Below, in pieces: positions 3 to 15,163 of a DNA stretch of 64,000 nt. The position numbers were made by a program, and so were the translations under genes. The first letter of the stretch is position 1. Each line of letters opens with the position of its first letter. Source of the stretch: a virus; IMG/VR virus record IMGVR_UViG_3300014050_000017, positions 1 through 64,000 of that record, one strand, 5' to 3'. The notes under the pieces were generated by a model, which was not told the origin of the DNA, made no database searches, and was given only the letters and a program-made list of their open reading frames with translations.

Positions 3-1562
3 AGCCTGAGCAGCCGCAGCAGCCTGAGCCTCCGCTTCAATACGAGAGCTCGTACTGGACACCTGAACAGCGATAGCATTTGCTTTTTCTACAGCTACAG
101 TTGCTAGCTGGTCAGCAGTGGTTATAGCCGCAGTAGCTGCAGTGGTAGCTGTATTAGCAGCAGTAGTAACCGTTTCTAAATTAGACTGTGCTGTTGTTAG
201 GTTTGTGTTGGCAGTTGTTAGATTTTCTTGAGCTGTTGTTAGGTTTTGCTGCTCAGCTGTAAGAGTTGTCTGAGCTGCAGTTAAAGCTACTTCTGCAGCA
301 GATTGCTGCCCTTGTGCAGTATTTAAATTTAGATTGGCAGTATTAAGAGCCTCTGCAGCAGCTTGAGCTGCAGCTAGCTGCTCTGGGGTTGCGCTGCTAC
401 GACTCAAGGCTGAAGCTGGAACTACCTGCCATCCCTGCCCTCTATTCCACTGTAGCTGAACGTTTGCTCCTCCGCCGTTCTCATAGAAATGAAGAGTAAG
501 CGCTTTAGGAGTATTGGCTGTAAAAGCAACAGGTTGAGAGACGCTCCCCCCGCCACCTTTGTCATACCAGTCATTAATAACTAGTTGACCATTAAGATAT
601 AGTTTTACTCCGTCATCTGCTGGTGCGTAGAACTGGATATTACCTGTTGTGTCAGAGGTAATCTGACCAGTGTATTTAACTTGGAAGTCATCTCTAAATG
701 TATTAGCAGGTGCTCCGCTACCCCAGTTTTGATTAATTTGAGAAACAGTAGTGGTAAGGGTAGTTGTTCCAATTTCAACAGGTGGCGCATTGTTATACCC
801 GATGTTCTGGGTAACTTTCATATCTAAACCAGGTTGGGTACTAGCAGCCACAGTAGCATCAGCCGCAGCTTTAGTAGTAACGGCCTCCGTTACTACTGCT
901 TGTTGTGTAGTAACTGCAGAGGTTGCAACATTTACATCTTCTTGTCTAGCAGCAACAGTTTCAGTTGCAGTTTGTACAACTGCAGTTTGAGTTGTAACAG
1001 CATTAGCTGCAGCAACAGCTGTGGTGGTAGCAGTTTCCACAGCTGCTGCGGCAGGTGCTACGAGAGCGGTTGCGCTCTCAGCTTGTTGCACCAAAACAGT
1101 TGCACTATCAACTGCTGTCTGTGCAGTTGTGATTGCGGTGTTGGCCTCAGCAACAGCGGTGACAACTGCTGTTTCTGATGCTACTGTTGGTGGAATAACT
1201 GTTGATGCCACAGTTGCCGTGGCAGTATCAATCTTTGCTTGTACGGAGGTAACTGTAGGTGTCTCGGACTGAGTTGTTGTTCCTGTTGTTGTGTTTTCCT
1301 GTGTCATGGAGTTTTGGTTGGACGATGGCTCGTTATTGGATGAGGTTACGGTGGGTTGTGCACTTGGAGCAGGTTGCGGCTCAGGCACGGGAGTTGAAGA
1401 GGGTGACGGCTCAGCTGGAGGCGTTGATGAAGGAGACTGAGAAGGAGCAGGAGTAACCACCTGCTCGTTTGTAGCAGGCTCGTCTGCAGTAGCCGATTGT
1501 TGACTAACTAAATGAAGAACTGTTGCAAGGAATAGTGCTGCGAGTATACGCAGTTTATTTAT
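3..1562 (-). CDS. Secreted/surface protein with signal peptide, Pro/Ser/Thr-rich linker, Ala/Thr coiled coil and PA14 domain (3' end outside window)
   Basis: Open frame from 1562 to the left edge, absent from the ORF track. Translates (M)NKLRILAALFLATVLHLVSQQSATA-DEP...; PA14 motifs FYAPADDGVKLYLNGQLVINDW and HFYENGGGA at about 420-830; SD AAGGAG 6 nt before ATA at 1562. Confidence 0.8.
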   Translation of the reverse strand, partial: MNKLRILAALFLATVLHLVSQQSATADEPATNEQVVTPAPSQSPSSTPPAEPSPSSTPVPEPQPAPSAQPTVTSSNNEPSSNQNSMTQENTTTGTTTQSETPTVTSVQAKIDTATATVASTVIPPTVASETAVVTAVAEANTAITTAQTAVDSATVLVQQAESATALVAPAAAAVETATTTAVAAANAVTTQTAVVQTATETVAARQEDVNVATSAVTTQQAVVTEAVTTKAAADATVAASTQPGLDMKVTQNIGYNNAPPVEIGTTTLTTTVSQINQNWGSGAPANTFRDDFQVKYTGQITSDTTGNIQFYAPADDGVKLYLNGQLVINDWYDKGGGGSVSQPVAFTANTPKALTLHFYENGGGANVQLQWNRGQGWQVVPASALSRSSATPEQLAAAQAAAEALNTANLNLNTAQGQQSAAEVALTAAQTTLTAEQQNLTTAQENLTTANTNLTTAQSNLETVTTAANTATTAATAAITTADQLATVAVEKANAIAVQVSSTSSRIEAEAQAAAAAQA

Positions 1563-1948: not shown

Positions 1949-2189
1949 GAGTTACGATATCCCATTTATCTCCGTGACGTTCCCTCATCATCTTCAAACC
2001 TGCTGCTGTGTGAGAGCCTGTAAAAGAGACGTTAGGGTTTTTCTTACTAGTCATAGTAAATCCTGTAAAAAGACCTTTACCAGTATTAAGGTCAACCTTG
2101 CTTACGCCTTCATCATTCATAGCGTGAGCACCCTCAGGGCCTATATTGACAACAGTACCCTTAAACTGGTCTTCACTACGCTCTGTCAT
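1938..2189 (-). CDS. Hypothetical protein
   Basis: ORF track; tightly packed operon. Confidence 0.6.
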   Translation of the reverse strand: MTERSEDQFKGTVVNIGPEGAHAMNDEGVSKVDLNTGKGLFTGFTMTSKKNPNVSFTGSHTAAGLKMMRERHGDKWDIVTHEA

Positions 2190-2479
2190 TTTTCATTCTC
2201 TTTCTTACCAGCACGGCGTTTGTTCTCTTTAGCAGTGTTTTTACTGCGAGAGATGGCTCTTAGGTTGCCCTTGGAGTCATTATTGTGGTTGTTGTCCTTA
2301 TGGTCCACAGTAATATCCTTAGACTTAAGTTTACCGTTCTTGGACTCATAGTCAGCACGAGCTTTATTCTTTGAAGTGGTAACCCACTTACCGCCGACCT
2401 TTTTCTTGTATACGTAGATAGGACGGCCGCCATTAGCATCAGAGCCCTTGTAAGGGCCAAACTTCTTTGTCTCTGCCAT
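2186..2479 (-). CDS. HNH endonuclease-like protein
   Basis: TVDHKDNNHNNDSKGNLRAISRSKN HNH motif; start moved to MAETKK. Confidence 0.7.
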   Translation of the reverse strand: MAETKKFGPYKGSDANGGRPIYVYKKKVGGKWVTTSKNKARADYESKNGKLKSKDITVDHKDNNHNNDSKGNLRAISRSKNTAKENKRRAGKKENEK

Positions 2480-2634
2480 TAGATACTCCACCATCCTTGT
2501 AGTGTGGCCTTACCACTGGCAATCCACTCTCTATGCTGTTCGTGCGTTAAATTCCAATCTATCTCATGGGTAGGCTTTTCACAAGAAGGACAAATATCCT
2601 TACCTGTGTACGCGTACACATGATGACAGAACAT
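2479..2634 (-). CDS. Small Cys/His protein (51 aa)
   Basis: MFCHHVY...CPSCEKPTH...WWSI*; fills the gap with a TAATG overlap. Confidence 0.5.
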   Translation of the reverse strand: MFCHHVYAYTGKDICPSCEKPTHEIDWNLTHEQHREWIASGKATLQGWWSI

Positions 2635-4320: not shown

Positions 4321-4548
4321 CTAAAGTTTAGTGCGCTTTGTTTGATAATACTCAATAAAGGCTAGTAAGAGCATATCCACTAATTGAGGGGAATCTTTAT
4401 GTTTCTCTTCAAAATGGTGTTTCCAGGCAACGGCACCGAACTTATTCGAGCCGCATCCATTATCAATATCTGTGAATACAAGGCGTGCAAATTTAGCCGT
4501 GCGACCTTGAAAGTCCAGGCTCTCTTCGAGAAAGTCGTAAAAGCTCAC
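4321..4548 (-). CDS. Hypothetical protein (weakly YozE-like)
   Basis: MSFYDFLEE...; leaderless CACAAT-6nt-GTG start. Confidence 0.55.
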   Translation of the reverse strand: MSFYDFLEESLDFQGRTAKFARLVFTDIDNGCGSNKFGAVAWKHHFEEKHKDSPQLVDMLLLAFIEYYQTKRTKL

Positions 4549-4662
4549 GACTGTATTGTGAGGCTACTGCCTGGGTTTTAAACCCTAAACTCTCATAGGC
4601 ATCTATAGCATCATCCATTGAGTATGGGTGCTCTCTATAGCACTGACCACACTGCAAACACA

Positions 4663-4899
4663 TTAACGCTTTTTAGCTGTTTTCTTTACAGCCTTCTTAG
4701 CAGTCTTCTTTACCGCCTTCTTGGCAGCCTTCTTGACTGGCTTCTTAGCAGTTTTCTTAGATGCCTTCTTAGGCTTTAGGATTTCGTCTAGTTCTTCTTC
4801 CCAGACCTGTGGGCCAGTCTTGAGGAACTTATCATCACGAAGAGCCTTGCCAACAATGGCGACAATAACAGCGAATACAACAACAAATAAGATTTCCAT
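4663..4899 (-). CDS. Membrane-anchored protein with histone-H1-like Lys/Ala tail
   Basis: N-terminal TM (ILFVVVFAVIVAIVG) plus KKAAKKAVKKTAKK repeats; TATAGT-6nt-ATG leaderless start. Confidence 0.7.
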   Translation of the reverse strand: MEILFVVVFAVIVAIVGKALRDDKFLKTGPQVWEEELDEILKPKKASKKTAKKPVKKAAKKAVKKTAKKAVKKTAKKR

Positions 4900-4999
4900 A
4901 CCCAAACTATAGCAGGCTACTGCCTCCCCAATCTATGTGTAGGTACTCATGTTACCTGCCACCCCCGCGCTCGGGCGTGTCGTCTAACCCCTACCCCCC

Positions 5000-5073
5000 T
5001 GTGGATAAGTAGATGAACAAAAGATGAACAATAATAGCCCTAGTTGATAGGTGTCGGGGCTATCCATTAGGCT
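5000..5073 (+). promoter_or_regulatory. Cassette 1: DnaA box + tandem TGAAC repeat + sigma-A-type promoter
   Basis: TGTGGATAA 5000-5008; TGAAC 5014 and 5025; -35 TTGATA 5044; -10 TAGGCT 5068. Confidence 0.8.
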
Positions 5074-5099
5074 AGGGCTACCAACGAAAGGGGAACATT

Positions 5100-5384
5100 A
5101 TGGACATGACCATTAGCAAGTCGCTAGTTCATGGATTTATCCGTAATCTCAATGGCAAGTTCTTTACCATTGAGTTCGTCAAGCGCACTACGGGGGAATA
5201 CCGCGTTATGCGTGCCACTACCAACTATGACTCAAAGTTAGCGGGTGGCGACCTAGCCTACGACGCTAACGCCAAGCAACTTATCCCAGTATGGGACATG
5301 GATAAGAAAGCGTTTCGTAGTATCCCAACCGACGCGGTCAAGGTTATCCGCGCCCTCGGTAATACTTACAAGGTGGTTGAATAA
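5100..5384 (+). CDS. SH3/WYL-like fold protein (DUF2693-like)
   Basis: FTIEFVKRTTGEYRVMRAT...IPVWDMDKKAFRSIP signature; SD GAAAGGGG. Confidence 0.7.
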   Translation: MDMTISKSLVHGFIRNLNGKFFTIEFVKRTTGEYRVMRATTNYDSKLAGGDLAYDANAKQLIPVWDMDKKAFRSIPTDAVKVIRALGNTYKVVE

Positions 5385-5738
5385 ATGAAGCACGCAATTC
5401 ACATGGAGGGGGGCAGGTCGCTAAGCGACCTGCTCGACACCGAGACATTCCGTAACGCCTCAGTAACGGACACGCTCAACGGCAACGGGGTTATGGTAGC
5501 CCTACACTCTGCCCGTCATGTAGTCGATACCATGACCCTAAGCGGTTATGACTCAGACACTATCGCCTACGCATTCGAGAAGCCATGGAAGTATCCAGAA
5601 TTCTGGCTCCCAGCCCTCTACATTCATGGAGTTCTCTACGGCATCGGCGGACGCCGACTCTACACCGCCTTTATCAGTGATGTGGAATACGACGATAACC
5701 ACACATTCACTATCAAGGAACTCGAACCAACGGAATAA
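5385..5738 (+). CDS. Hypothetical protein
   Basis: ORF track; abuts upstream stop. Confidence 0.65.
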   Translation: MKHAIHMEGGRSLSDLLDTETFRNASVTDTLNGNGVMVALHSARHVVDTMTLSGYDSDTIAYAFEKPWKYPEFWLPALYIHGVLYGIGGRRLYTAFISDVEYDDNHTFTIKELEPTE

Positions 5739-5742
5739 GGTT

Positions 5743-5770
5743 AGAGGCGCGGACTTCCCCCCGCGCCTCT
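5743..5770 (+). terminator. Hairpin after gene, C-rich loop
   Basis: AGAGGCGCGG-ACTTCCCC-CCGCGCCTCT. Confidence 0.6.
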
Positions 5771-5867
5771 CTCGATTCCCCGTAGGGGTATGGGGAGGGT
5801 GGGTCAACACAAACATTAGAACGGCATAGGGACTGGCAAAGGAACCCCAGGAATAATAAAGAGAGCC

Positions 5868-5964
5868 TGTGGATAACTCGGTAAACAAGCCTGTGGATAA
5901 CTAAGTAAACAATAAGTGAACAAATTCAAACTGGCTTGCGTCTCATAAGGTTATCGAATAAGTT
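5868..5964 (+). promoter_or_regulatory. Cassette 2: two DnaA boxes + repeat + promoter
   Basis: TGTGGATAA 5868 and 5892; half-sites 5882, 5906, 5917; -35 TTGCGT 5936; -10 TAAGTT 5959. Confidence 0.8.
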
Positions 5965-6004
5965 TATCTCAGTGGGCAAGGGGCTCACAGAAAGTAGGTT
6001 AAAA

Positions 6005-6241
6005 GTGGATACATCCACTCAAGCGACACCAGTCGCTACCGATTACCTAAATAAGGTAATCACTCTCCGCAACGCCAAGTATTTTGGCACTGTTCAATCA
6101 GGTCGCTGTGAAGCGGTCACAATCACTGAACAAGGTGTTCAGTCAGTGAACATCGAGGGAATCGGCGACATCCGCGTCGCTGATGACTCTGATTACCAGC
6201 AGGGCTCACACTACTACTGGAACATCGAGTCAGTTCTCTGA
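6005..6241 (+). CDS. Hypothetical protein
   Basis: GTG start at 6005 after SD-like GAAAGTAGGT; the longer ORF-track start overlaps the promoter. Confidence 0.65.
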   Translation: MDTSTQATPVATDYLNKVITLRNAKYFGTVQSGRCEAVTITEQGVQSVNIEGIGDIRVADDSDYQQGSHYYWNIESVL

Positions 6242-6317
6242 TAGTTTCTATCGCCCCTAGTCGCAAGGCTAGGGGCGGTGGTGATTATCATAGGATAATC
6301 AGAAAGGGGGGTGAGCC

Positions 6318-6461
6318 ATGGACCCACGTCTATGGATGGCTCAGGTCTATCGCCAGTTGCGCGGTAACGAGCTGCTTAAGCAGTTTGAAACCGATATCAA
6401 CAATTGCCAAGGACCTGACGACGCTATTGCAATCTGCAAGCGTTACCTAGCATTGGCATAG
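6318..6461 (+). CDS. Hypothetical protein (47 aa)
   Basis: SD GAAAGGGGGGTGA; MDPRLWMAQ...YLALA*. Confidence 0.6.
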   Translation: MDPRLWMAQVYRQLRGNELLKQFETDINNCQGPDDAIAICKRYLALA

Positions 6462-6467
6462 CAAGGA

Positions 6468-6500
6468 GCCCCGCGTCGCAAGGCGCGGGGCGCTTTGTTT
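6468..6500 (+). terminator. Intrinsic terminator
   Basis: GCCCCGCG-TCGCAAGG-CGCGGGGC followed by a T-rich tail; same loop as the hairpin at 6252-6277. Confidence 0.7.
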
Positions 6501-6551
6501 GTGTTGGCCCGCCCACCCCGTTTATTTAATTGGGAGTTTTGGGAGGAGAGC

Positions 6552-6624
6552 TGTGGATAACTTAGTGAACACCAGGTGAACAATCAAAAACCTAGTAGAC
6601 ATGCGGAAAGTGTTCAAATATAGT
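6552..6624 (+). promoter_or_regulatory. Cassette 3: DnaA box + repeat + promoter
   Basis: TGTGGATAA 6552; TGAAC 6566 and 6577; -35 TAGACA 6596; -10 TATAGT 6619. Confidence 0.8.
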
Positions 6625-6665
6625 TTAGGTAGTGGGCAAGGGGCTCACAGAATAGGGGTTAAATT

Positions 6666-6869
6666 GTGCAAGAAGTTATATTCTACAACGGTTTCAACTT
6701 ACTCGTTGACATCGTCCTATGTTCGATTGTTGGATTCTTATCCTACAGGGCAGGAAAGATATCAGGTTACTTCAAGGGTTACAGTGACGGTGAAAACGAT
6801 TACAAGGACCGAGCAGAACAAGAAGCCGAGTATTACTACAACAGCATGCGAGAGGATTCATGGTCATGA
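6666..6869 (+). CDS. Small membrane protein
   Basis: TM segment then GKISGYFKGYSDG; SD AGGGG. Confidence 0.65.
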   Translation: MQEVIFYNGFNLLVDIVLCSIVGFLSYRAGKISGYFKGYSDGENDYKDRAEQEAEYYYNSMREDSWS

Positions 6870-7165
6870 AGTTACAGTGTAACCAAAAGGAAGCCATGGA
6901 CCGCATCGCGGCCCGTCAACCATTTGAGGCGTCAGCCTTGAGCGGTAAATATTGCAACTATACGCCTGGCGCAGGGCGCCTAGGCTCAGAGTATGACAGG
7001 CTTATTAGTGACTTTAAAACAGGCGCTTACGTAGTCTTCTCATATTCAACACCAATCGCCTGGTATGGGGCCAATGGTTGGTACGTAGTACAGGAGAAGT
7101 TCTCCCCTACTACATCCAAGCAACAGAATTACGTGCGACGAGCGGTTACCGTCATAGCCGCTTAG
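6866..7165 (+). CDS. Hypothetical phage protein
   Basis: ATGA coupling; YVVFSYSTPIAW...SPTTSKQQ motif. Confidence 0.7.
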   Translation: MKLQCNQKEAMDRIAARQPFEASALSGKYCNYTPGAGRLGSEYDRLISDFKTGAYVVFSYSTPIAWYGANGWYVVQEKFSPTTSKQQNYVRRAVTVIAA

Positions 7166-7177
7166 AAACCCCCTGGC

Positions 7178-7207
7178 AAAAGGCCCTCGAGAAATCGGGG
7201 GCCTTTT
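7178..7207 (+). terminator. Intrinsic terminator
   Basis: AAAAGGCCCTCGA-GAAA-TCGGGGGCCTTTT. Confidence 0.75.
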
Positions 7208-7220
7208 GTTATGCAGAGAA

Positions 7221-7298
7221 TGTTTGTGTTGACCACCCACCATCCCCACGCTAACACCATACATTGGCATTAAGCGAAGCTTAATGCCAACACAAACA
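7221..7298. repeat. TGTTTGTGTTG...CAACACAAACA inverted-repeat element with inner GCGAAGC hairpin
   Basis: Arms 7221-7231 and 7288-7298; perfect TTGGCATTAAGC-GAA-GCTTAATGCCAA at 7264-7290. Confidence 0.75.
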
Positions 7299-7307
7299 CC
7301 TGCGGCC

Positions 7308-7405
7308 TGTGGATAACTTAGTGAACGGGGCTGTGGATAACTCCGTTAACGGAAGATGAACAATAATAATCCTATTTGAAAGATTGAGATTGCTCATAGT
7401 AGGCT
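7308..7405 (+). promoter_or_regulatory. Cassette 4: two DnaA boxes + repeat + promoter
   Basis: TGTGGATAA 7308 and 7332; half-sites 7322, 7346, 7357; -35 TTGAAA 7376; -10 TAGGCT 7400. Confidence 0.8.
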
Positions 7406-7452
7406 AAGGACATGCGGGAAAGTCCCGTATACATAGTGAGAGGGGGCGCCAC

Positions 7453-8463
7453 ATGGCGCACGCACTAGAGGTTGAGAATGGCGAGGTAGCCTTTGCGCTA
7501 CGCGGTGCACCCGCGTGGCATGGCTTGGCTAATCGTACATTCTCCGCCGACGAGCATGTCTCAACCGCAGACATGCTATCCGCTGCTAAATTAGCAGACT
7601 GGAATGTCCGACTAGAGGACGTTCAATACCCAGCGGGTTACCGCTCAAAGTCCGACCTATTTATGGTCGTACGCACCAACCCATTCGACCAAGGCACCGA
7701 CGTGCTATCGGTCGTTGGTAAGCGCTACCGCGTATTCCAAAACGAGGAATTGTTCACATTCGGGGATAACATCCTCGACGGTGGCGCCTCATGGGAATCC
7801 GCAGGTTCAATCAAGGACGGCAAGGTCGTATTCGGCTCTCTCGTCGTACCTCGTGAGTTCATTCTCGACCCACAAGGTGCCAATGATAAGACTACTACTT
7901 ATCTGCTCGTTCACACATCACACGACGGTAGCGCCAGCGTTCAGGCGTCTATCACACCAGTGCGCGTCGTTTGCCAAAATACGCTACACGTTGCACTCAA
8001 TAACACTAAGTCCTCATTCAAGTTGCGCCACACTCTCAAGGTAGAGGGTCGCGTTGCAGAGGCTCGCCTCGCTCTTGGGCTCACATTCAATTACATGGAT
8101 GAGTTTGAGTCCATCGCTAAGTCTCTCTTTGAGACCTCAATGTCCAACGCTCAATGGGATAAGTTGGTCAATGCAATCTACCCAATGCCCGACGCTAATC
8201 AAGTCGCGCCACAAGTCATGACTAAGTGGCAAGCCAAGCGCGACCTACTGGATGATATCTATCACCAGTCACCAACCCAGACCAACATCAAGGGTAACTA
8301 CTGGGGCGCCCTTAACGCTCTCACCGAGCGTATCGACTACTTCCGCTCAGGTCGCACCGCCAATGGCGAGGCACTTATCGGAGCAGCCAGCGGGTTCGAC
8401 CCAGTGGTCAATGCGGAAAAGTCTCGCATCATGCGAGCAGTCCGCGAGTTGGCTAACGCTTAA
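7453..8463 (+). CDS. DUF932 family phage/plasmid protein
   Basis: PAWHGL, YRVFQNEE, YLLVHTSHDGS, TPVRVVCQNTL, WGALNALTE motifs. Confidence 0.85.
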   Translation: MAHALEVENGEVAFALRGAPAWHGLANRTFSADEHVSTADMLSAAKLADWNVRLEDVQYPAGYRSKSDLFMVVRTNPFDQGTDVLSVVGKRYRVFQNEELFTFGDNILDGGASWESAGSIKDGKVVFGSLVVPREFILDPQGANDKTTTYLLVHTSHDGSASVQASITPVRVVCQNTLHVALNNTKSSFKLRHTLKVEGRVAEARLALGLTFNYMDEFESIAKSLFETSMSNAQWDKLVNAIYPMPDANQVAPQVMTKWQAKRDLLDDIYHQSPTQTNIKGNYWGALNALTERIDYFRSGRTANGEALIGAASGFDPVVNAEKSRIMRAVRELANA

Positions 8464-8474
8464 GTAAGCCTACT

Positions 8475-8501
8475 AGCCCCCCGCACCCAGCGGGGGGCTT
8501 T
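8475..8501 (+). terminator. Intrinsic terminator
   Basis: AGCCCCCCGC-ACCCA-GCGGGGGGCT-TT. Confidence 0.7.
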
Positions 8502-8524
8502 GGCATGCCCGCATTTAGCTAAAA

Positions 8525-8611
8525 GTTTGTGTTGGGGCTTGCTGAACAGTAGCTATATATGTATAGGTAGTGTTCGAAAACAGCACCTATACAGCAAGCC
8601 CCAACACAAAC
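8525..8611. repeat. Long hairpin element (20-bp perfect arms)
   Basis: GTTTGTGTTGGGGCTTGCTG 8525-8544 / CAGCAAGCCCCAACACAAAC 8592-8611. Confidence 0.85.
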
Positions 8612-8628
8612 AAGCCTATCAGCAGGGC

Positions 8629-8703
8629 TGTGGATAACTAAATGAACAGGAGATGAACAATCACTACGCTGGCTTGCGTTATGTCGGGAGTCTAAATTAG
8701 ACT
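8629..8703 (+). promoter_or_regulatory. Cassette 5: DnaA box + repeat + promoter
   Basis: TGTGGATAA 8629; TGAAC 8643 and 8654; -35 TTGCGT 8674; -10 TAGACT 8698. Confidence 0.8.
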
Positions 8704-8781
8704 CGGCGTAGTGAGAAATACTCACACAAGTAGAGATAGGAGAAATCCAATGCTACCTAGAGACTCTAGGGAACGACTCTA

Positions 8782-9216
8782 ATGACGAAGGGGGGTGATA
8801 CTATCTTTACACGCAACAACGCTCAACTCATTGAGCAACAGCAAGTGCCAAATCCAATGGCGAAGGGGCACTTCTTTACCAACATGACCGAACTTCTTTG
8901 GTCTGATGGGACTATTACATTCGGTTGCCTCATCTGTGGCGACCAAATGGACTCACGCCCACAACTCTCAATCCACATTGGCAAGGCTCACAACCCTGCC
9001 AAACCTAAAAAGCCTACTAAGAAGGCTACCCGCAAATACACTAAGCGCAATACAGAGTATTGGGCTAATGGTGGAAACATCAACCAAAACCGACCAACAA
9101 CCGACCAAACGCTAACCGATAAGGAACTAGCGTTTTGGAAGGCGCAAGCGCACAAGGCAGAAGCGGAAAACCGCAAACTGCGAGCGCAACTCAAAGCCCT
9201 ACTAAACATAAAGTAG
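8782..9216 (+). CDS. C2H2 zinc-finger protein with basic linker and C-terminal coiled coil
   Basis: CLICGDQMDSRPQLSIHIGKAH; KPKKPTKKATRKY; AEAENRKLRAQLKALL. Confidence 0.7.
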   Translation: MTKGGDTIFTRNNAQLIEQQQVPNPMAKGHFFTNMTELLWSDGTITFGCLICGDQMDSRPQLSIHIGKAHNPAKPKKPTKKATRKYTKRNTEYWANGGNINQNRPTTDQTLTDKELAFWKAQAHKAEAENRKLRAQLKALLNIK

Positions 9217-9296
9217 GCAGGGTTTCTCACCCCCCGTGAGAATAGTCCTGAGCATGACTCCAAACTGCTCATCTAACAAAGCCTAAGGGGGCTAAA

Positions 9297-9692
9297 GTGG
9301 CAACAACCATAAAGGTAGATAGGCTAGTCCTATTACAAGCACTAACGGCTAAACTAGCCGAGCAAGACCAACTTCGTGCCGACTACAAGAAGGCAGAGGA
9401 AAAATACAAGAAGGCAACAGAAACCTTTGCTAATAAGATTATGACATTGGTAAAAGGTGGCAAGTTAGAAGTCGCAAACACTAACTATCGTTCTTGGCGT
9501 GATGAACTAGAAATCACTATCAAGATAGATAAAGGCGTTATGCCAACCGAGCCTGAACAACCTAAGCGTCCTGACGCATGGCTACACGATAGCGATTACG
9601 AGGAACTCCGTAAGACTATCAAGTTGCTAGGTATGACGGCAGACCCAAGCGTGCCTACAAGCGTGTATAAGTCTGTATCACAATGGCTCTAA
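9297..9692 (+). CDS. Hypothetical protein
   Basis: SD AAGGGGG, GTG start. Confidence 0.7.
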   Translation: MATTIKVDRLVLLQALTAKLAEQDQLRADYKKAEEKYKKATETFANKIMTLVKGGKLEVANTNYRSWRDELEITIKIDKGVMPTEPEQPKRPDAWLHDSDYEELRKTIKLLGMTADPSVPTSVYKSVSQWL

Positions 9693-9703
9693 AATAAGAC
9701 TAC

Positions 9704-9734
9704 GAAGCCCCCGCAGAGATGCGGGGGCTTTCTT
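9704..9734 (+). terminator. Intrinsic terminator
   Basis: GAAGCCCCCGCA-GAGA-TGCGGGGGCTTT-CTT. Confidence 0.75.
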
Positions 9735-9822
9735 GTTTGTGCTGGGCTTGCTGTAATAAGTAGCTATCTCGGTATAGGTACGGATTTCATCACTGCCTAT
9801 ACCAGCAAGCCCAGCACAAACA
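9734..9822. repeat. Long hairpin element, paralog of 8525-8611
   Basis: TGTTTGTGCTGGGCTTGCTG 9734-9753 / CAGCAAGCCCAGCACAAACA 9803-9822. Confidence 0.85.
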
Positions 9823-9843
9823 TAATAGGGCTGAGAGATGGCC

Positions 9844-9952
9844 TGTGGATAACTAGGTGAACAACGTATGAACAACCCTGTGGATAACTAAGTGAACGAG
9901 AGATGAACAATTACAAATGTAATGGAGAAAAGAGAAAGAGTTATAGTAGATT
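9844..9952 (+). promoter_or_regulatory. Cassette 6: duplicated DnaA box/repeat unit + promoter
   Basis: TGTGGATAA 9844 and 9879; TGAAC 9858, 9869, 9893, 9904; -35 TGGAGA 9923; -10 TAGATT 9947. Confidence 0.75.
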
Positions 9953-9978
9953 AGGCACACCTACCGAAGGGGGGGACT

Positions 9979-10506
9979 ATGAACAGTATTGAACGCAAGG
10001 AGCGTTTTACTGAACTAATGGCAACAATAGAGTTGTTGCCAAGTATAGAGGACGAAAACTACGAGCCTAAGTTTCCTAAGGGAACACTAGGCTTATCAGA
10101 CGGACGACTAAAGACCGCTATCATGGTTCAAGCCATGAAAAATGATGAGGAGTTTCAAGGCAACCTTATCAACGCACTAGCAAATACAGGTCTAGAAGCG
10201 TGCCAACAAAAGCACATGAACGGCGAAATGCCTAACGAGGACGACATAGCCTCGGTATGTATGGCTATCCATGTAGCGTGGGCGGCAGGTGCGTTATCGC
10301 CTATGCTAATAATCCTAGGTATCGCAAGTAAGATGTTCGCAGTATGCGACATTGAAATACCTGACGACCTCACACTTATCTTTCGTCCTAATCAGGGCAT
10401 GAAGGATAAAGCGCCACAGTTAGACCCGATAGCCCTATTAGAGTTAGATAAGGAAGGGCTATTTGACCTACTAAAGAAGGGTTATGAAAATGACTCTGAC
10501 GAGTGA
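9979..10506 (+). CDS. Hypothetical protein
   Basis: SD GAAGGGGGGG. Confidence 0.7.
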   Translation: MNSIERKERFTELMATIELLPSIEDENYEPKFPKGTLGLSDGRLKTAIMVQAMKNDEEFQGNLINALANTGLEACQQKHMNGEMPNEDDIASVCMAIHVAWAAGALSPMLIILGIASKMFAVCDIEIPDDLTLIFRPNQGMKDKAPQLDPIALLELDKEGLFDLLKKGYENDSDE

Positions 10507-10735
10507 TAAAAAGACTCCCGACGGGCGCCGTATGGTAGCCCTACCATTCAAAATTGAGTTCGTTGCCTATGTAGAGGAGCATAAGTTCCTAGAACACATG
10601 ACCTTAGTAGGTGGCGAGTTAGATAGGCTTATCAACATGCACGAGGCATGTGCAGTAGATGTGCTAGACATAGACAAGCAGTTGGTTGATAAACAACGAG
10701 GCTGGAAGGAAGTCCTCGTAGAAAGGGTGCAATAA
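10484..10735 (+). CDS. Hypothetical protein
   Basis: ORF track; overlaps upstream gene. Confidence 0.6.
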   Translation: MKMTLTSDKKTPDGRRMVALPFKIEFVAYVEEHKFLEHMTLVGGELDRLINMHEACAVDVLDIDKQLVDKQRGWKEVLVERVQ

Positions 10736-10736
10736 A

Positions 10737-11222
10737 ATGGGTATGGATGTGTATGGCAAAGCGCCGAAGTCCGAACGCGGGGAGTATTTCCGCAATAATA
10801 TATGGTGGTGGCGACCACTATGGGATTATTGCGAGGAAGTAGCCCCTGACCTCTGCTCCAATGTAGATGGACACTCCAATAGCGGAGATGGTCTTGACGA
10901 CAAGGGCGCAGAACAACTTAGCCAAATCCTCAAGATAAGGCTATCTGATGGGTCTGTAGATAAGTACGCTCAAGAACGGGAAGTCTATCTATCAGCCCTA
11001 CCAAAGGAAGTATGCGATTTCTGTGACGGAGTGGGTATCGTACAGGTGAAGGAAGGCTGGCCTGACTATGTAGAAGGGCAAGTAACCTTTAGAGACCCAT
11101 GTAACGCATGCAACGGCACTAAGGAGAAAGAACCATGGCAACGCCATTACCCATTCTCCAAGGAAAACGTAGAAGAGTTCGCAGAGTTCCTAGCAGATAG
11201 CGGTGGATTTGAAATCTGTTAG
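10737..11222 (+). CDS. Hypothetical protein with DnaJ-type CxxCxGxG zinc motifs
   Basis: MGMDVYG...YFRNNIWWWRPLW; CDFCDGVG, CNACNGTK; FLADSGGFEIC. Confidence 0.75.
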   Translation: MGMDVYGKAPKSERGEYFRNNIWWWRPLWDYCEEVAPDLCSNVDGHSNSGDGLDDKGAEQLSQILKIRLSDGSVDKYAQEREVYLSALPKEVCDFCDGVGIVQVKEGWPDYVEGQVTFRDPCNACNGTKEKEPWQRHYPFSKENVEEFAEFLADSGGFEIC

Positions 11223-11247
11223 GACGGAACCCCTTCCTATCCATCGC

Positions 11248-11283
11248 ATAGGGCTATCAGTTTCGGCTGGTAGCCCTATTTTA
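11248..11283 (+). terminator. Intrinsic terminator
   Basis: ATAGGGCTATCAG-TTTCGG-CTGGTAGCCCTAT followed by a T run. Confidence 0.75.
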
Positions 11284-11326
11284 TTGCCGCTAAGTTACTG
11301 GCCAGTAGCTCTCCAGGCCGCGGAGA

Positions 11327-11470
11327 TGTTTGTGTTGGCCCACCCTCTCGTATTTTGGTATTAAATTATACCAAAATACTCGTACCCACCCTGAATGACG
11401 CCTTTTTTAATATAAAAAAGGCGGTCATTGCTAATTGGGCTATGGCTTTAGCCATTAGCCCAACACAAAC
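11327..11470. repeat. TGTTTGTGTTGG...CCAACACAAAC element enclosing three hairpins
   Basis: Arms 11327-11338 and 11460-11470; inner GTATTTTGGTAT/ATACCAAAATAC, GCCTTTTTTA/TAAAAAAGGC and GGGCTA/TAGCCC. Confidence 0.75.
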
Positions 11471-11472
11471 CC

Positions 11473-11557
11473 TGTGGATAACTTGGTTAACAGGAGATGA
11501 ACATTGGCTGAGAGAGAGAGAATTGGCTTGACGGCAGAGAGAGCGAGAGAGTAGGCT
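11473..11557 (+). promoter_or_regulatory. Cassette 7: DnaA box + repeat + promoter
   Basis: TGTGGATAA 11473; half-sites 11487 and 11498; -35 TTGACG 11528; -10 TAGGCT 11552. Confidence 0.75.
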
Positions 11558-11669
11558 CGGAGATTTTGCCCTCTCGGCTACTGCCACCCCGTCTAATAGG
11601 CTTGTTAAGCGCAAGGCCAGATTTAATAGCCTTATCGCCAAGTCCTATCAGCATGAGAGAGAAGGGGGT

Positions 11670-11742
11670 TGTGGATAACTATATGAACGGCAGATGAACA
11701 AATGGGTGGAGAGTGTAGTTAAATGCGGAAATAGGTTAGAGT
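11670..11742 (+). promoter_or_regulatory. Cassette 8: DnaA box + repeat + promoter
   Basis: TGTGGATAA 11670; TGAAC 11684 and 11695; poor -35 TGTAGT 11714; -10 TAGAGT 11737. Confidence 0.7.
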
Positions 11743-11783
11743 GGGGGAGTGGCAACACCGCCACCTATATTGAAGGGGTCGTT

Positions 11784-13301
11784 ATGACTAATCACCTTGC
11801 GTTGCTCGTAGTGAGTGACGCCGTATTAGAGGGGGAACAGGCGCAAGCCCAAACCCTACTCATAGGAACGGATACCGAAGTCTTAGGGTATCACCGCGTA
11901 TCTAATGGCGCTAAGGGGAGAGGACAGGCGTGGCAACCCGTATCCGTCCTTCCTACTAGCCCTATCTCTCACGAACCCGTTGCCGTCGTACTTAGCGACC
12001 GCGACCTCGTAATGCTTCAACTCGGTCAGATTACTAATATCGGTATTAAGGCGCTATATGCGTTAGAGAGCGCCACCGCACCTAGTAACCCTATCGCTCA
12101 CGACCTTGCCGTAGAGGGGTTACGCGACCGCCTCACACAGGGCGATTCCACGCTATCTGAACATGTAACTGATAAGCGTCGTTCACAGGGTCTATCTATT
12201 AGCCCTATCGTAAGTACAACTTCGGCGACCGCGACCGCGCCCGTCGTGCCTATCAAGCCTATCGAGCCTACAAGTAATAAGGCTATGAGTGACGCCCTAG
12301 TAAATGCTATGGTGAGCGTGCCTGATAAGGCTTTCGCAAAGTCCTATATCAACCGCAAGGTCGTAGGCGGTCTTACCGACTTCGAGATTATGGACTTCGC
12401 TATGGCGTCTAAGAAAAATGTCCTTATCGAAGGTCACGCAGGGTCAGGTAAGACGGCTATGGTGCAAGCCTATGCGTCAGCGCGTGGACTTCGGTATTTT
12501 AACGTCGCATGCCATATTGGATTAGAGGCTTCACACCTCGTCGGTCGTTGGATTCCTACCCCCGACGGACACTTCCGTTGGCAGGACGGCGCAGTTACAG
12601 AGATAGTCCGTAATGGTGGCGTCCTACTATTCAACGAAATTAACTTCGCACCCGAGCGCTTTCTCACCTTTATCTTTAGCCTATTAGATTATCGTCGTGA
12701 GATTCAGTTAATGGAAAATGGTGGCGAAGTCGTCAAGGCTCACCCCGACCTACTTATCGTAGGCGACATGAACCCCGACTATCGTGGCACTCGCCCACTC
12801 AACCAAGCACTCGCCGACCGCTTCCCCGAGCGTCTAGTATTCCCATACGATAATGCTATCGAACAGAAGTTACTCGGTAGCAAAGCCCTATTAGATATGG
12901 CGAACCAACTCCGTACCGAGTTTGATAAGGGTACTATCAGCACCCCTATCTCCACCCGTAATCTAGTAGCCTTCGCAGATAACGCTAAGGCGCTAGGCAT
13001 GGACTTCGCCACCTATTGCTATATCAACTCTTTCGAGGGTGATGAGGAACGTAGTGCAGTAAGACTATTACTCACCACTCACCACGACAATATCGCGTCC
13101 GACTTCGGACTTGCTACTAAGGCTATTAAAGATGTATTCGGTAACTCAAATGTAGAAACCGCTATCTTAAATACAGAAGTAGGCGCTATCGTGGACGGCA
13201 TGGAAGTATCCGTAGCAGAAGCGACCCCCGAGATGAACGATATCCACGAAGCGGAAGCGTTTAACTCTCTCGTCGATATCCTTAACGGCGGTAACAACTA
13301 A
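11784..13301 (+). CDS. MoxR/CbbQ/CobS-like AAA+ ATPase
   Basis: Walker A GHAGSGKT, Walker B LLFNEIN, MNPDYRGT, ALADRF, ISTRNL; start at MTNHL after SD GAAGGGG. Confidence 0.9.
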   Translation: MTNHLALLVVSDAVLEGEQAQAQTLLIGTDTEVLGYHRVSNGAKGRGQAWQPVSVLPTSPISHEPVAVVLSDRDLVMLQLGQITNIGIKALYALESATAPSNPIAHDLAVEGLRDRLTQGDSTLSEHVTDKRRSQGLSISPIVSTTSATATAPVVPIKPIEPTSNKAMSDALVNAMVSVPDKAFAKSYINRKVVGGLTDFEIMDFAMASKKNVLIEGHAGSGKTAMVQAYASARGLRYFNVACHIGLEASHLVGRWIPTPDGHFRWQDGAVTEIVRNGGVLLFNEINFAPERFLTFIFSLLDYRREIQLMENGGEVVKAHPDLLIVGDMNPDYRGTRPLNQALADRFPERLVFPYDNAIEQKLLGSKALLDMANQLRTEFDKGTISTPISTRNLVAFADNAKALGMDFATYCYINSFEGDEERSAVRLLLTTHHDNIASDFGLATKAIKDVFGNSNVETAILNTEVGAIVDGMEVSVAEATPEMNDIHEAEAFNSLVDILNGGNN

Positions 13302-15163
13302 TGCCACGCGACAACCACAACGACCTACTAGATAGGCTTATCGAGGAAACTCGCATGGGCGCTTATAGCGGTGACGAAACCTTCGACGCCGAAGCCCTTG
13401 CAGAGGAATTAGAGGAACATATCAACAAGTTACAGGCGGTAGGTGCGGTCTATGGTCGCACCGACCGCATACTTACCGCCGAACCCGTAGAGGTACGCGT
13501 CGAGGATAATCCCGAGATGAATACCCAAGCCTACAACGACGGCAAGACTATCGTGTTCAACGCTAGGCTTATCGAGGACGTAGATGATAAGACTATTATC
13601 TCGCTCAACGGATTCAACTACCACGAAGTCGCTCACGTCCTATATTCCCCTAGAGGCGGTAGCGAGTTCGGTAAGGCTATCAAGCGCGAAGGGTTGAAGC
13701 ATGCGTACAACTGCCTAGAGGACGCCCGTATCGAGCGCCTACTAATCGCTAAGTATCCTGCCGTCGCACCCTTCCTAGAGGCTACCTGCCTAGAGTATCT
13801 ATTGAAGGGTCAGAGCAACGAGTTCGCTAGTTACTTCCCACTAATGACGGGTCGCAAGTATTTAGATATAGAATTGCGACAGGAAATTGCAGATAGATTT
13901 ATTAAGCACTTCGGCAAGGACTTAGCCATGTCGATATCAGTGCTAGTGCATGAGTACCGCACACTCGTATTCCCACGCGACTACGATAGAGGCTTAGAGA
14001 TAATAAGACTATTTGCAGATATCGTTGGTCGTGAGGATATCAACGAAGTTAATGGCGTACCTATGATTCCTAGTGGCGGTCATGGCGACCGCGACGTTCA
14101 GGATAAGGGTCGCATGAAAGGTATCCGCGAACAGGAAGCCCAACAAGATAAGGCTAACAAGGACGAGGCTAACGGCGCAGGACAGGGCGACGAGCGCATG
14201 GACGACCCTGCCGATTCTAATACAGAAATAGATACCGATAGCCGTAGTTTCGGTAGCGACGGCAAGGACGACGCAGACGACAACGTGCTTCGCAAAGATA
14301 TCAAAGAGCGACTAGATAACCTTAGCAAGGACGAGGAAGTAATGCGTGGCGCTAAGGAAGTCCGTAAGGCTATCAACGACAATAACCAACGTCGTAGTGC
14401 TATTAAACAGGGCGCTTACTCTCTCCAACAAGTAACGTCAAAGGTATCTGCGACCGCCAAGTCTTTTGGTGTAGCCCTAGAGCGCGTCCGTATAGATAAC
14501 GACCCTGCGTGGGAGTTAGAGCAACCTATGGGTCGCTTAAATATAGGACGTGCTATGCGTGCCGATATCAACGACATAGATAAAGTGTTCGATAGGTGGA
14601 GTGAGGGTAACTCCAATAATGATATCGACGCGATAATCCTAGTAGATACTTCGGGTAGCATGTCGTGGCAGATTCAGCGCACTATGGAAAGCGCATGGAT
14701 TATCAAGCGCGGTATCGAACGTATCAACGGGCGCGTATCCGTTTATAAGTTTAACCACGATAGTAGGCTTATCTACTCCGCAACTGATAAGGCTATGCCA
14801 ACCGAGTATCGCTACGTCAATACTTCGGGCGGTACTAACCCTTACAAAGCCCTATTAGAAGCACGCCGTCACCTAACGTCTAGCCGTCGTGGAGTACGCA
14901 TGCTATTTATCGTGACCGACGGGCATTGGGATATGACCGACGAGAACGATAAGATTATCGCCGACCTTAATACGGACGGCGTAGAAACTGCGATAGTCTA
15001 TCTCGGTGATATCAAGCGCTACTCTGATAGTCGTGAGGAATACGAGCGTTACTGCGCCATGTATCGTCATGGTGCAAAGCACTTCCGCGATATCGTAGAA
15101 CCAACCGACATGGTGCTACTCGCTAAGGACATAGTTAAAGCCACTATGACCGCAAGGCACTAG
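13301..15163 (+). CDS. vWA-domain partner protein (CobT-like) with HExxH motif
   Basis: HEVAH, NCLEDARIE, acidic linker, MIDAS DTSGS, GGT, VTDG; TAATG coupling to the ATPase. Confidence 0.85.
   Translation: MPRDNHNDLLDRLIEETRMGAYSGDETFDAEALAEELEEHINKLQAVGAVYGRTDRILTAEPVEVRVEDNPEMNTQAYNDGKTIVFNARLIEDVDDKTIISLNGFNYHEVAHVLYSPRGGSEFGKAIKREGLKHAYNCLEDARIERLLIAKYPAVAPFLEATCLEYLLKGQSNEFASYFPLMTGRKYLDIELRQEIADRFIKHFGKDLAMSISVLVHEYRTLVFPRDYDRGLEIIRLFADIVGREDINEVNGVPMIPSGGHGDRDVQDKGRMKGIREQEAQQDKANKDEANGAGQGDERMDDPADSNTEIDTDSRSFGSDGKDDADDNVLRKDIKERLDNLSKDEEVMRGAKEVRKAINDNNQRRSAIKQGAYSLQQVTSKVSATAKSFGVALERVRIDNDPAWELEQPMGRLNIGRAMRADINDIDKVFDRWSEGNSNNDIDAIILVDTSGSMSWQIQRTMESAWIIKRGIERINGRVSVYKFNHDSRLIYSATDKAMPTEYRYVNTSGGTNPYKALLEARRHLTSSRRGVRMLFIVTDGHWDMTDENDKIIADLNTDGVETAIVYLGDIKRYSDSREEYERYCAMYRHGAKHFRDIVEPTDMVLLAKDIVKATMTARH

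Follow-up and report, generated by a model that had tools for sequence, protein, structure and literature searches.

DnaA boxes, the binding sites of the bacterial replication initiator, are known from phage contexts such as those of lambda and P1. In Escherichia coli, DnaA acts as a transcription factor at dnaA, nrdAB, purH and other promoters (Stringer, Fitzgerald and Wade 2024, PMC11317965), and it prefers box pairs 2-3 bp apart (PMC11317965). Response regulators stand beside DnaA boxes at replication origins, as described for MtrA in Mycobacterium tuberculosis and for CtrA, Spo0A and HP1021 (review PMC4285127), and the host Pho regulator is used by cyanophages (PMC10976474). T4-like phages shuffle their early genes via repeated promoter/stem-loop cassettes known as PeSL (PMC2839356, PMC4122927). 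Here we describe, in an uncultured tailed phage, a composite site in which a predicted DnaA box is joined to short direct repeats in front of eight promoters. The stretch analyzed (the window) is the first 64 kb of the 80,133-bp IMG/VR virus record IMGVR_UViG_3300014050_000017, which has a completeness estimate of 83% and a G+C content of about 45-47%. From sequence comparison, we see an even chance that the composite combines a host DnaA box with repeats for a second protein and that the two would modulate the eight phage promoters as a regulon.

The 9-mer TGTGGATAA is found in 11 exact copies, all on the plus strand and all within 6.7 kb, whereas shuffled sequence has 0.64 copies on average and never more than 3. 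Every copy perfectly matches the DnaA-box consensus, TTATCCACA or TT(A/T)TNCACA, the bottom strand reading TTATCCACA. These 11 are the only copies in the whole record, and a position weight matrix scan of the genome scores them at 34-41 bits, with the next best site at 10 bits, indicating that there are no degenerate copies. Each box is located between plus-strand open reading frames (ORFs); a called ORF start at 11694, which overlaps the last unit, is a mis-call, as the homologous gene in relatives begins about 90 nt later. Exactly 5 nt after the box there is a T[G/A/T]AAC in 11/11 cases, and in nine units a second TGAAC follows 11 nt later. From this second TGAAC, a -35-like hexamer is reached after 14 nt in six units, after 15 nt in the unit at 8629 and after 25 nt in the unit at 11473. 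The hexamer is followed after 17-18 nt by TAnnnT, which in each of the eight promoter-proximal units thereby lies 37-39 nt (49 in one unit) past that TGAAC. In terms of 9-mers, box A is separated by 3 bp from repeat B (nGT[G/A/T]AACAn), which in turn is separated by 2 bp from repeat B'; the last is GATGAACAA in five of nine instances. Tandem units repeat at steps of 24, 24 and 35 bp, and these duplications hold the register, resulting in runs of five or six co-oriented 9-mers. Exact counting bears out the original prediction of 11 perfect, co-oriented and intergenic boxes, along with its 5/11/14-nt geometry, the exceptions of 15 and 25 nt and the 24- and 35-bp duplications. Its further observation that no other perfect copy was seen in the window holds for the full 80-kb record as well.

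A comparison with the systems described above reveals both likeness and difference. As at DnaA-regulated promoters of E. coli, a consensus 9-mer lies beside the promoters, and pairs 2-3 bp apart are found in phage relatives and 5' of the candidate host dnaA gene; unlike those promoters, the set is phage-borne and eight promoters strong, the predicted site is far upstream (about -80 to -72) and a second repeat element is joined to it. The resemblance to origins with MtrA, CtrA, Spo0A or HP1021 is that a DnaA box directly adjoins direct repeats of the kind bound by OmpR/PhoB proteins, whereas the phage units are found at promoters, one per promoter, and not in a single cluster. T5-like phages provide a precedent, as there too a lytic phage has conserved host DnaA boxes in its early region without needing them as an origin (bioRxiv 10.1101/866236), but T5 has eight boxes in two inverted-repeat clusters within a non-coding region, for which an injection stop is proposed, rather than one box per promoter. 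Literature searches returned no description of such an arrangement in actinophages. What appears to be new is the combination, in which every cassette of a phage promoter set would carry a host initiator site as an upstream module, locked in phase, with a partner that can be swapped.

The order within a cassette is terminator, long hairpin, composite site, sigma-A-type promoter, short 5' hairpin and small gene(s). To judge by gene order alone, the eight promoters would be of the early type. An E. coli-type sigma-70 scan was rejected as a promoter finder; it detects one of the eight, as their -10 elements follow the TAnnnT pattern. The arms of the long hairpins ahead of the units are GTTTGTGTTGG and CCAACACAAAC. 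Inverted GTTTGTGTTGG ... CCAACACAAAC arms bound variable long hairpins that separate each terminator from the box after it (8520-8614 and 9699-9836 are examples), with arm sites at 6496-6514, 7221-7239 and 11327-11345 and copies of CCAACACAAAC just 5' of most boxes. The arms are kept in relatives and could be processing sites or recombination joints.

This layout is reminiscent of T4 PeSL, as small early genes are flanked by a repeated unit of terminator or stem-loop plus promoter, and close relatives swap genes at the joints. It differs in phage lineage and host, and the phage unit bears host-type regulator sites, the kind of site itself being swapped. The likeness is one of architecture, not of homology. 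The corresponding explanation, that recombination between cassettes acting as mobile promoter-terminator units of the PeSL type is mainly what keeps the units alike, with no specific protein reading the 9-mer, is very improbable. Genes between conserved joints do differ among G000 and the related genomes G004 and G005, as in PeSL-mediated shuffling (PMC4122927). However, the spacer bases within units vary freely while the 9-mer and repeats are invariant, and the same 9-mer occurs in distant relatives with unrelated surroundings.

The phage encodes WhiB, which we regard as a marker of actinophages, as well as PolA, RecA, Hsp20, a MerR-like helix-turn-helix protein, a class II ribonucleotide reductase and TGT/DpdA-like, DUF932, AAA_5 ATPase and VWA proteins. 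A near-identity search against cultured phages gave no match; at the protein level, DUF932 and the ATPase match only actinophages among cultured phages, namely those of Streptomyces, Mycobacterium, Gordonia, Arthrobacter and Brevibacterium. Isolates of 'Ca. Planktophila' phages have a G+C content of 44.8% (PMC10202952). Because of this value and the WhiB gene, our best guess for the host is a low-GC freshwater actinobacterium. As a proxy for the actual host, we used a family of Actinomycetota with genomes of 1.0-2.2 Mb that was found via one metagenome-assembled genome with a related reductase gene. Across 16 dnaA loci from these genomes, with 38-51% G+C, there are 46 copies of TTATCCACA against two of TTGTCCACA, the form of high-GC actinobacteria. 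The proxy-host boxes of the dnaA region mostly continue with C and then T/C, like the phage boxes. In addition, ccTGTGGATAActtTGTGGATA lies directly 5' of dnaA, the same string being present in distant phage relatives, and a tandem box pair spaced by 3 bp is likewise common to the dnaA region and those relatives.

To place the array among related phages, a DUF932 protein search was performed, which yielded 44 related loci with 91-52% identity and 35-48% G+C. Related IMG/VR genomes have box arrays in the corresponding block (9 boxes in G005, 9 in G003, 8 in G002, 10 in L110 and 6 in G006/L119), with almost no copies outside the block in the complete relatives of 96-98 kb. Relatives down to 52% protein identity carry the same 9-mer at orthologous promoters. 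Among 19 non-redundant distant relatives, TTATCCACA occurs 62 times versus 3.8 expected, a 16-fold excess, and the variants seen in relatives, TTTTCCACA, TTATACACA and TTATGCACA, are enriched about 2-fold in the same loci. At the orthologous DUF932 promoter, distant relatives have either inverted TT(A/T)TCCACA-N13-TGTGGA(T/A)A(A/T) pairs or tandem boxes 3 bp apart. As the 9-mer is the universal consensus and remains invariant while its surroundings change, we interpret it as a predicted DnaA box, a reading that is well supported by comparison.

A closer look at spacing shows that box-end-to--10 distances across the present genome and its relatives fall into four groups, 37-40, 49-51, 58-60 and 70 nt. 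These distances, in short 39, 50, 59 or 70 nt, step by one helical turn, keeping the box on one helical face relative to the -10. Such helical phasing reads as the signature of a protein facing RNA polymerase from upstream and would therefore mean that the box serves transcription, not only a sponge or an origin. The same data bear on the possibility that the boxes chiefly soak up DnaA or serve replication or DNA docking, as with datA, oriC or the T5 injection stop, and that their promoter position is incidental; we consider this improbable. The proxy host genomes contain 5-22 perfect boxes each (mean 10.7), so that one phage genome with its 11 would approximately double the consensus sites of the cell, a number that suits a sponge. 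T5-like phages retain DnaA boxes in the first-injected region (bioRxiv 10.1101/866236), and distant relatives of the present phage have origin-like box clusters beside iterons. In contrast to these expectations, the boxes here are spread over 6.7 kb at one or two per promoter, not packed in a dense cluster of under about 1 kb; their helical register to the -10 is locked across lineages, for which neither a sponge nor an origin has need; and the phage has its own PolA and RecA.

The repeats next to the box were described in the original prediction as PHO-box-like. On the bottom strand they read TTGTTCAY and GTT[C/T/A]AY with an exact 11-nt period, and GTT[C/T/A]A[C/T/G]-N5-GTT[C/T/A]A[C/T/G] is found on that strand in 9 units versus 0.77 expected in the genome. 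A PHO box requires two or more direct repeat units, each exactly 11 nt long and with the consensus GG/TTCAYYYRG/CG (Sola-Landa et al. 2008, PMC2275107). Like actinobacterial PHO boxes, the phage sites have two units at exactly 11 nt and a GTTCAY core; the longer GTTCAYY is found in the promoter-proximal repeat of 8 of 9 units and in the box-proximal repeat too, save for C-to-T/A variants. The same repeats occur at the candidate host pstS gene. Upstream of 13 pstS loci of the proxy host family there are 11-nt repeats of [G/A/T]TT[C/T/A]A[C/T], with 10 of 25 motif pairs spaced 11 nt and 3 of 25 spaced 22 nt. The C-to-T/A variants recur there, GTTTAC and GTTAAC being common to the pstS repeats and the phage B sites. 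A strict double PHO pattern is found 0-4 times per genome in five host genomes, which is about control level; therefore, no large host regulon is defined by this pattern. A cyanophage study in which PhoB binding was tested cautions against relying on predicted Pho boxes in phages (PMC10976474).

Alternatively, the repeats might be low-affinity DnaA boxes, with the whole unit representing a nucleating box plus a DnaA-ATP oligomer array, as in oriC. The 9-mers 12 and 23 nt after the box start, that is, after 3- and 2-bp spacers, have a mean of 2.45 and about 1.8 mismatches to TGTGNAYAA, the second figure being 2.73 when the two units without a second repeat are included; the genome mean is 5.69, and 0.8% of 9-mers have two or fewer mismatches. 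Tandem units hold the 3/2/3-bp spacing, the relative L142 has TGTGGATAA-ccc-TGTGAACAA, and published models invoke strong-box nucleation followed by a weak-box array (PMC4285127) and pairs 2-3 bp apart (PMC11317965). Perfect tandem pairs are found in distant relatives; in the window, the second and third 9-mers match at 6-7 of 9 positions and have invariant bases of their own. Against this reading, box position 3 is always the non-consensus G, the rarest form in host dnaA-region boxes (2/76), position 9 is a pyrimidine rather than A, and the position ignored by DnaA is T in 20/20 repeats, an invariance that points to a separate reader. Moreover, a single TTGTTCATAGGTTGTTCAG stands by itself in the closest clade, oppositely oriented and not near a box. 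Weighing these sequence features, we would give roughly one third of our expectation to a PhoP-type protein as reader of the repeats, about one fifth to weak DnaA sites, which are thus a rather doubtful reading, and the remaining share to something else. Overall, the PHO-box reading is plausible but weaker than the DnaA reading. The DnaA-plus-PHO interpretation in the original prediction is supported in part: the DnaA part gains from the host-type 9-mer and flanks and from wide conservation, whereas for the plausible PHO part the pstS match, down to the variant bases, stands against the inversion of the repeats, the restriction of the box-adjacent pair to a single genome and the alternative reading as weak DnaA boxes.

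The element that accompanies the box changes among relatives. The closest clade has a single T[G/A/T]AAC, whereas G005 has TCCTG(T/A)GA and L119 an inverted TTRTNCACA; in L139-L143, another perfect box stands at a distance of 3 bp, with GTTAT repeats after it. G004 and G005 are colinear with the present genome at about 78% DNA identity, and in G004 the motif CGGCGTGTCG ends 24-25 nt 5' of each -10 (L105, which is G004, 7367-14376). Genes between the joints are swapped too, those at 5385-6882 being unique to the present genome although their flanks are colinear. The upstream sites thus appear to be swappable modules on a conserved promoter scaffold, and module swapping among such closely related phages amounts to a natural experiment on the evolution of promoter input. 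Almost all of the phage family shows enrichment of the motif CGGCGTGTCG itself, with 1-12 copies in each locus of 10-20 kb, and in distant relatives the motif is located 2 nt 5' of TTGACA. Its complement contains GACAC, the WhiA core motif. No enrichment of motif D (GGCGTGTCG) was found in the candidate host genomes (64 versus 50 for the control), and the reader of CGGCGTGTCG is therefore probably a conserved phage factor.

Several of these observations weigh against host DnaA and a second host protein as the readers of the composite. All 11 boxes are perfect, while host DnaA-regulated promoters usually tolerate mismatches. G004 lacks the box at orthologous promoters and uses CTGTGAGTTT and CGGCGTGTCG instead, so the box is dispensable, and G005 joins the box to a different partner; such module swapping is typical of phage-specific regulators. 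The Streptomyces phage Jay2Jay, the nearest cultured relative by DUF932, has no DnaA-type boxes in its early region; boxes of the TTGTCCACA type were expected there in a test of co-variation, for which the box-free region is uninformative. Unlike actinobacterial PHO boxes, the repeats leave the 3' R-S-G of the consensus unmatched. They run opposite to those at the host pstS gene, occupying the template strand of the genes that they precede, and their position is about -50 to -70, with the end 37-39 nt before the -10, rather than at -35. The repeat pair beside the box is not conserved in related phages, being confined to the present genome; relatives have one repeat, one free-standing pair or other modules, and a search for the three-part composite in IMG/VR and metagenome contigs gave only single chance matches. 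Finally, a DNA-level link between the phage and the proxy host family was sought, with only weak short matches.

The module swapping keeps alive the explanation, also raised in the original prediction, that one or more phage-encoded or virion-delivered proteins read the whole composite, the DnaA-like 9-mer being part of a phage operator in a middle-type regulon. We judge this to be unlikely, though it is to be taken seriously. Consistent with it, modules turn over at about 78% DNA identity (A-B-B' in the present genome, A-C in G005 and C-D in G004), the perfect boxes share a single orientation and a fixed spacing, at least one module probably has a phage reader, given that motif D is not enriched in candidate hosts, and the block encodes small unassigned proteins including a C2H2-like zinc-finger protein (8782-9216). 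On the other hand, phyletic profiling found no phage ORF that is present in all box-bearing genomes yet absent from G004, and no Bac_DnaA_C domain (DnaA domain IV) was found in the present genome or five complete relatives. The 9-mer is also invariant to 52% protein identity while its partner elements change, and the variants TTTTCCACA and TTATACACA, the tandem 3-bp pairs and the flanks mirror the boxes of the host dnaA region. A small CxxC ORF at 4493-4663 was considered as a gene tracking the box and repeats and was ruled out by a diverged copy in the box-less sister phage.

If host DnaA is the reader, it would dock on the box, and a second DNA-binding protein would dock on the repeats, for which the best candidate is a PhoP-type response regulator and the alternative is further DnaA protomers. 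Both might then tune the recruitment of RNA polymerase from upstream, in the manner of class I sites, at sigma-A promoters of moderate quality, and the eight promoters would form a regulon that reads the replication state of the host and possibly its nutrient state. The effect might be activation or repression. As the phage box count matches that of a whole candidate host chromosome, DnaA sequestration would be an expected side effect once phage DNA replicates. The layout of the sites, their conservation, their helical phase and their likeness to host-type sites are observed directly; from these we infer DnaA binding, the gating of early transcription and its timing, and likewise titration of DnaA by the array. 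The fuller version, in which a lytic phage infecting streamlined actinobacteria of lakes ties its whole early block to DnaA and the phosphate-starvation regulator PhoP, side by side on one helical face, while sister phages swap host-factor modules, is a tentative proposal that we think has a smallish chance of being right.

Control of these promoters by host DnaA, with or without a Pho-type regulator, would constitute a regulon-scale readout of host cell-cycle and nutrient state by a lytic phage, in which the host's own master regulators are the sensors of the phage. With both sensors in place, infection would proceed only in replication-competent hosts in the right phosphorus state. Such control would bear on infection timing by phages of slow-growing, phosphorus-limited lake bacteria and on the shutdown of host replication through the soaking up of DnaA.

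The coordinates of the eight units and their promoters are given in Table 1. The boxes sit in a plus-strand block that extends from 5000 to about 17750 and diverges from a minus-strand block beginning at 4905; the remainder of the genome beyond the plus-strand block is on the minus strand.

Table 1. Coordinates of the composite units, promoter elements and downstream genes, with the single module D motif
Feature	Span (strand)	9-mers	-35	-10	Genes and remarks
Unit 1	5000..5031 (+)	A 5000-5008, B 5012-5020, B' 5023-5031	TTGATA 5044-5049 (-35-like)	TAGGCT 5068-5073	Gene 5100-5384
Unit 2, tandem, 24-bp step	5868..5923 (+)	Distal A 5868-5876, B 5880-5888; proximal A 5892-5900, B 5904-5912, B' 5915-5923	TTGCGT 5936-5941	TAAGTT 5959-5964	Called TTG start 5936 falls within promoter
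Unit 3	6552..6583 (+)	A 6552-6560, B 6564-6572, B' 6575-6583	TAGACA 6596-6601	TATAGT 6619-6624	Likely gene 6666-6869
Unit 4, tandem, 24-bp step	7308..7363 (+)	Distal A 7308-7316, B 7320-7328; proximal A 7332-7340, B 7344-7352, B' 7355-7363	TTGAAA 7376-7381	TAGGCT 7400-7405	DUF932 gene 7453-8463
Unit 5	8629..8660 (+)	A 8629-8637, B 8641-8649, B' 8652-8660	TTGCGT 8674-8679	TAGACT 8698-8703	Genes 8782-9216 (C2H2-like zinc-finger protein) and 9297-9692
Unit 6, tandem, 35-bp step	9844..9910 (+)	Two full A-B-B' sets (A 9844, A 9879); six co-oriented 9-mers, spacers 3, 2, 3, 3, 2 bp	TGGAGA 9923-9928	TAGATT 9947-9952	Gene 9979-11222
Unit 7	11473..11504 (+)	A 11473-11481, B 11485-11493, B' 11496-11504	TTGACG 11528-11533	TAGGCT 11552-11557	Promoter one helical turn farther
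Unit 8	11670..11701 (+)	A 11670-11678, B 11682-11690, B' 11693-11701	TGTAGT 11714-11719 (-35-like)	TAGAGT 11737-11742	AAA_5 ATPase (true start near 11785) and VWA protein, end 15163
Module D motif CGGGCGTGTCG	4972..4982 (+)				Sole copy in window, 17 nt 5' of first box

Three of the mechanically called ORF starts, at 11694, 5936 and 6601, fall within promoter units and should probably be replaced by 11785 (ATG after GAAGGGGT), about 6002 (GTG) and 6666 in another frame, respectively. Downstream of the unit 7 promoter, about 110 nt (11558-11668) are without a convincing ORF ahead of unit 8, and the first 40 nt of this stretch (GGAGATTTTGCC..GGCTACTGCCACC) are kept in G004 and partly in other relatives, making it a candidate for a small RNA or a leaderless micro-peptide. 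Rfam gave no match at gathering score, and searches of the cassette proteins with Pfam and PHROGs gave almost no assignments.

Among the neighboring genes, the protein encoded at 8782-9216 (+) combines a C2H2-like zinc finger (CLICG...HIGKAH) with a stretch rich in lysine and a tail at the C terminus that resembles a coiled coil. Members of the clade share it at 39-75% identity, and within the block it stands out most clearly as a candidate for a DNA-binding protein of the phage. The divergent leftward block is led by a gene at 4663-4905 (-) for an 80-amino-acid protein with an N-terminal hydrophobic helix and a histone H1-like tail of KKAxKK repeats; its coding DNA is a repeat with a period of 12 nt. 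No other gene near the box array comes close to the conservation of the one at 2189-2485 (-), which encodes an HNH-like protein of 99-101 amino acids that is 88-98% identical across relatives whose other proteins are at 50-80%. The origin-like clusters of distant relatives are located at 15394-15510 in L141, 16432-16500 in L143 and 1413-1441 (-) in L140; they comprise several DnaA boxes beside iterons (AAACCTAACAA repeats), and one box pair overlaps a TATAAT promoter.

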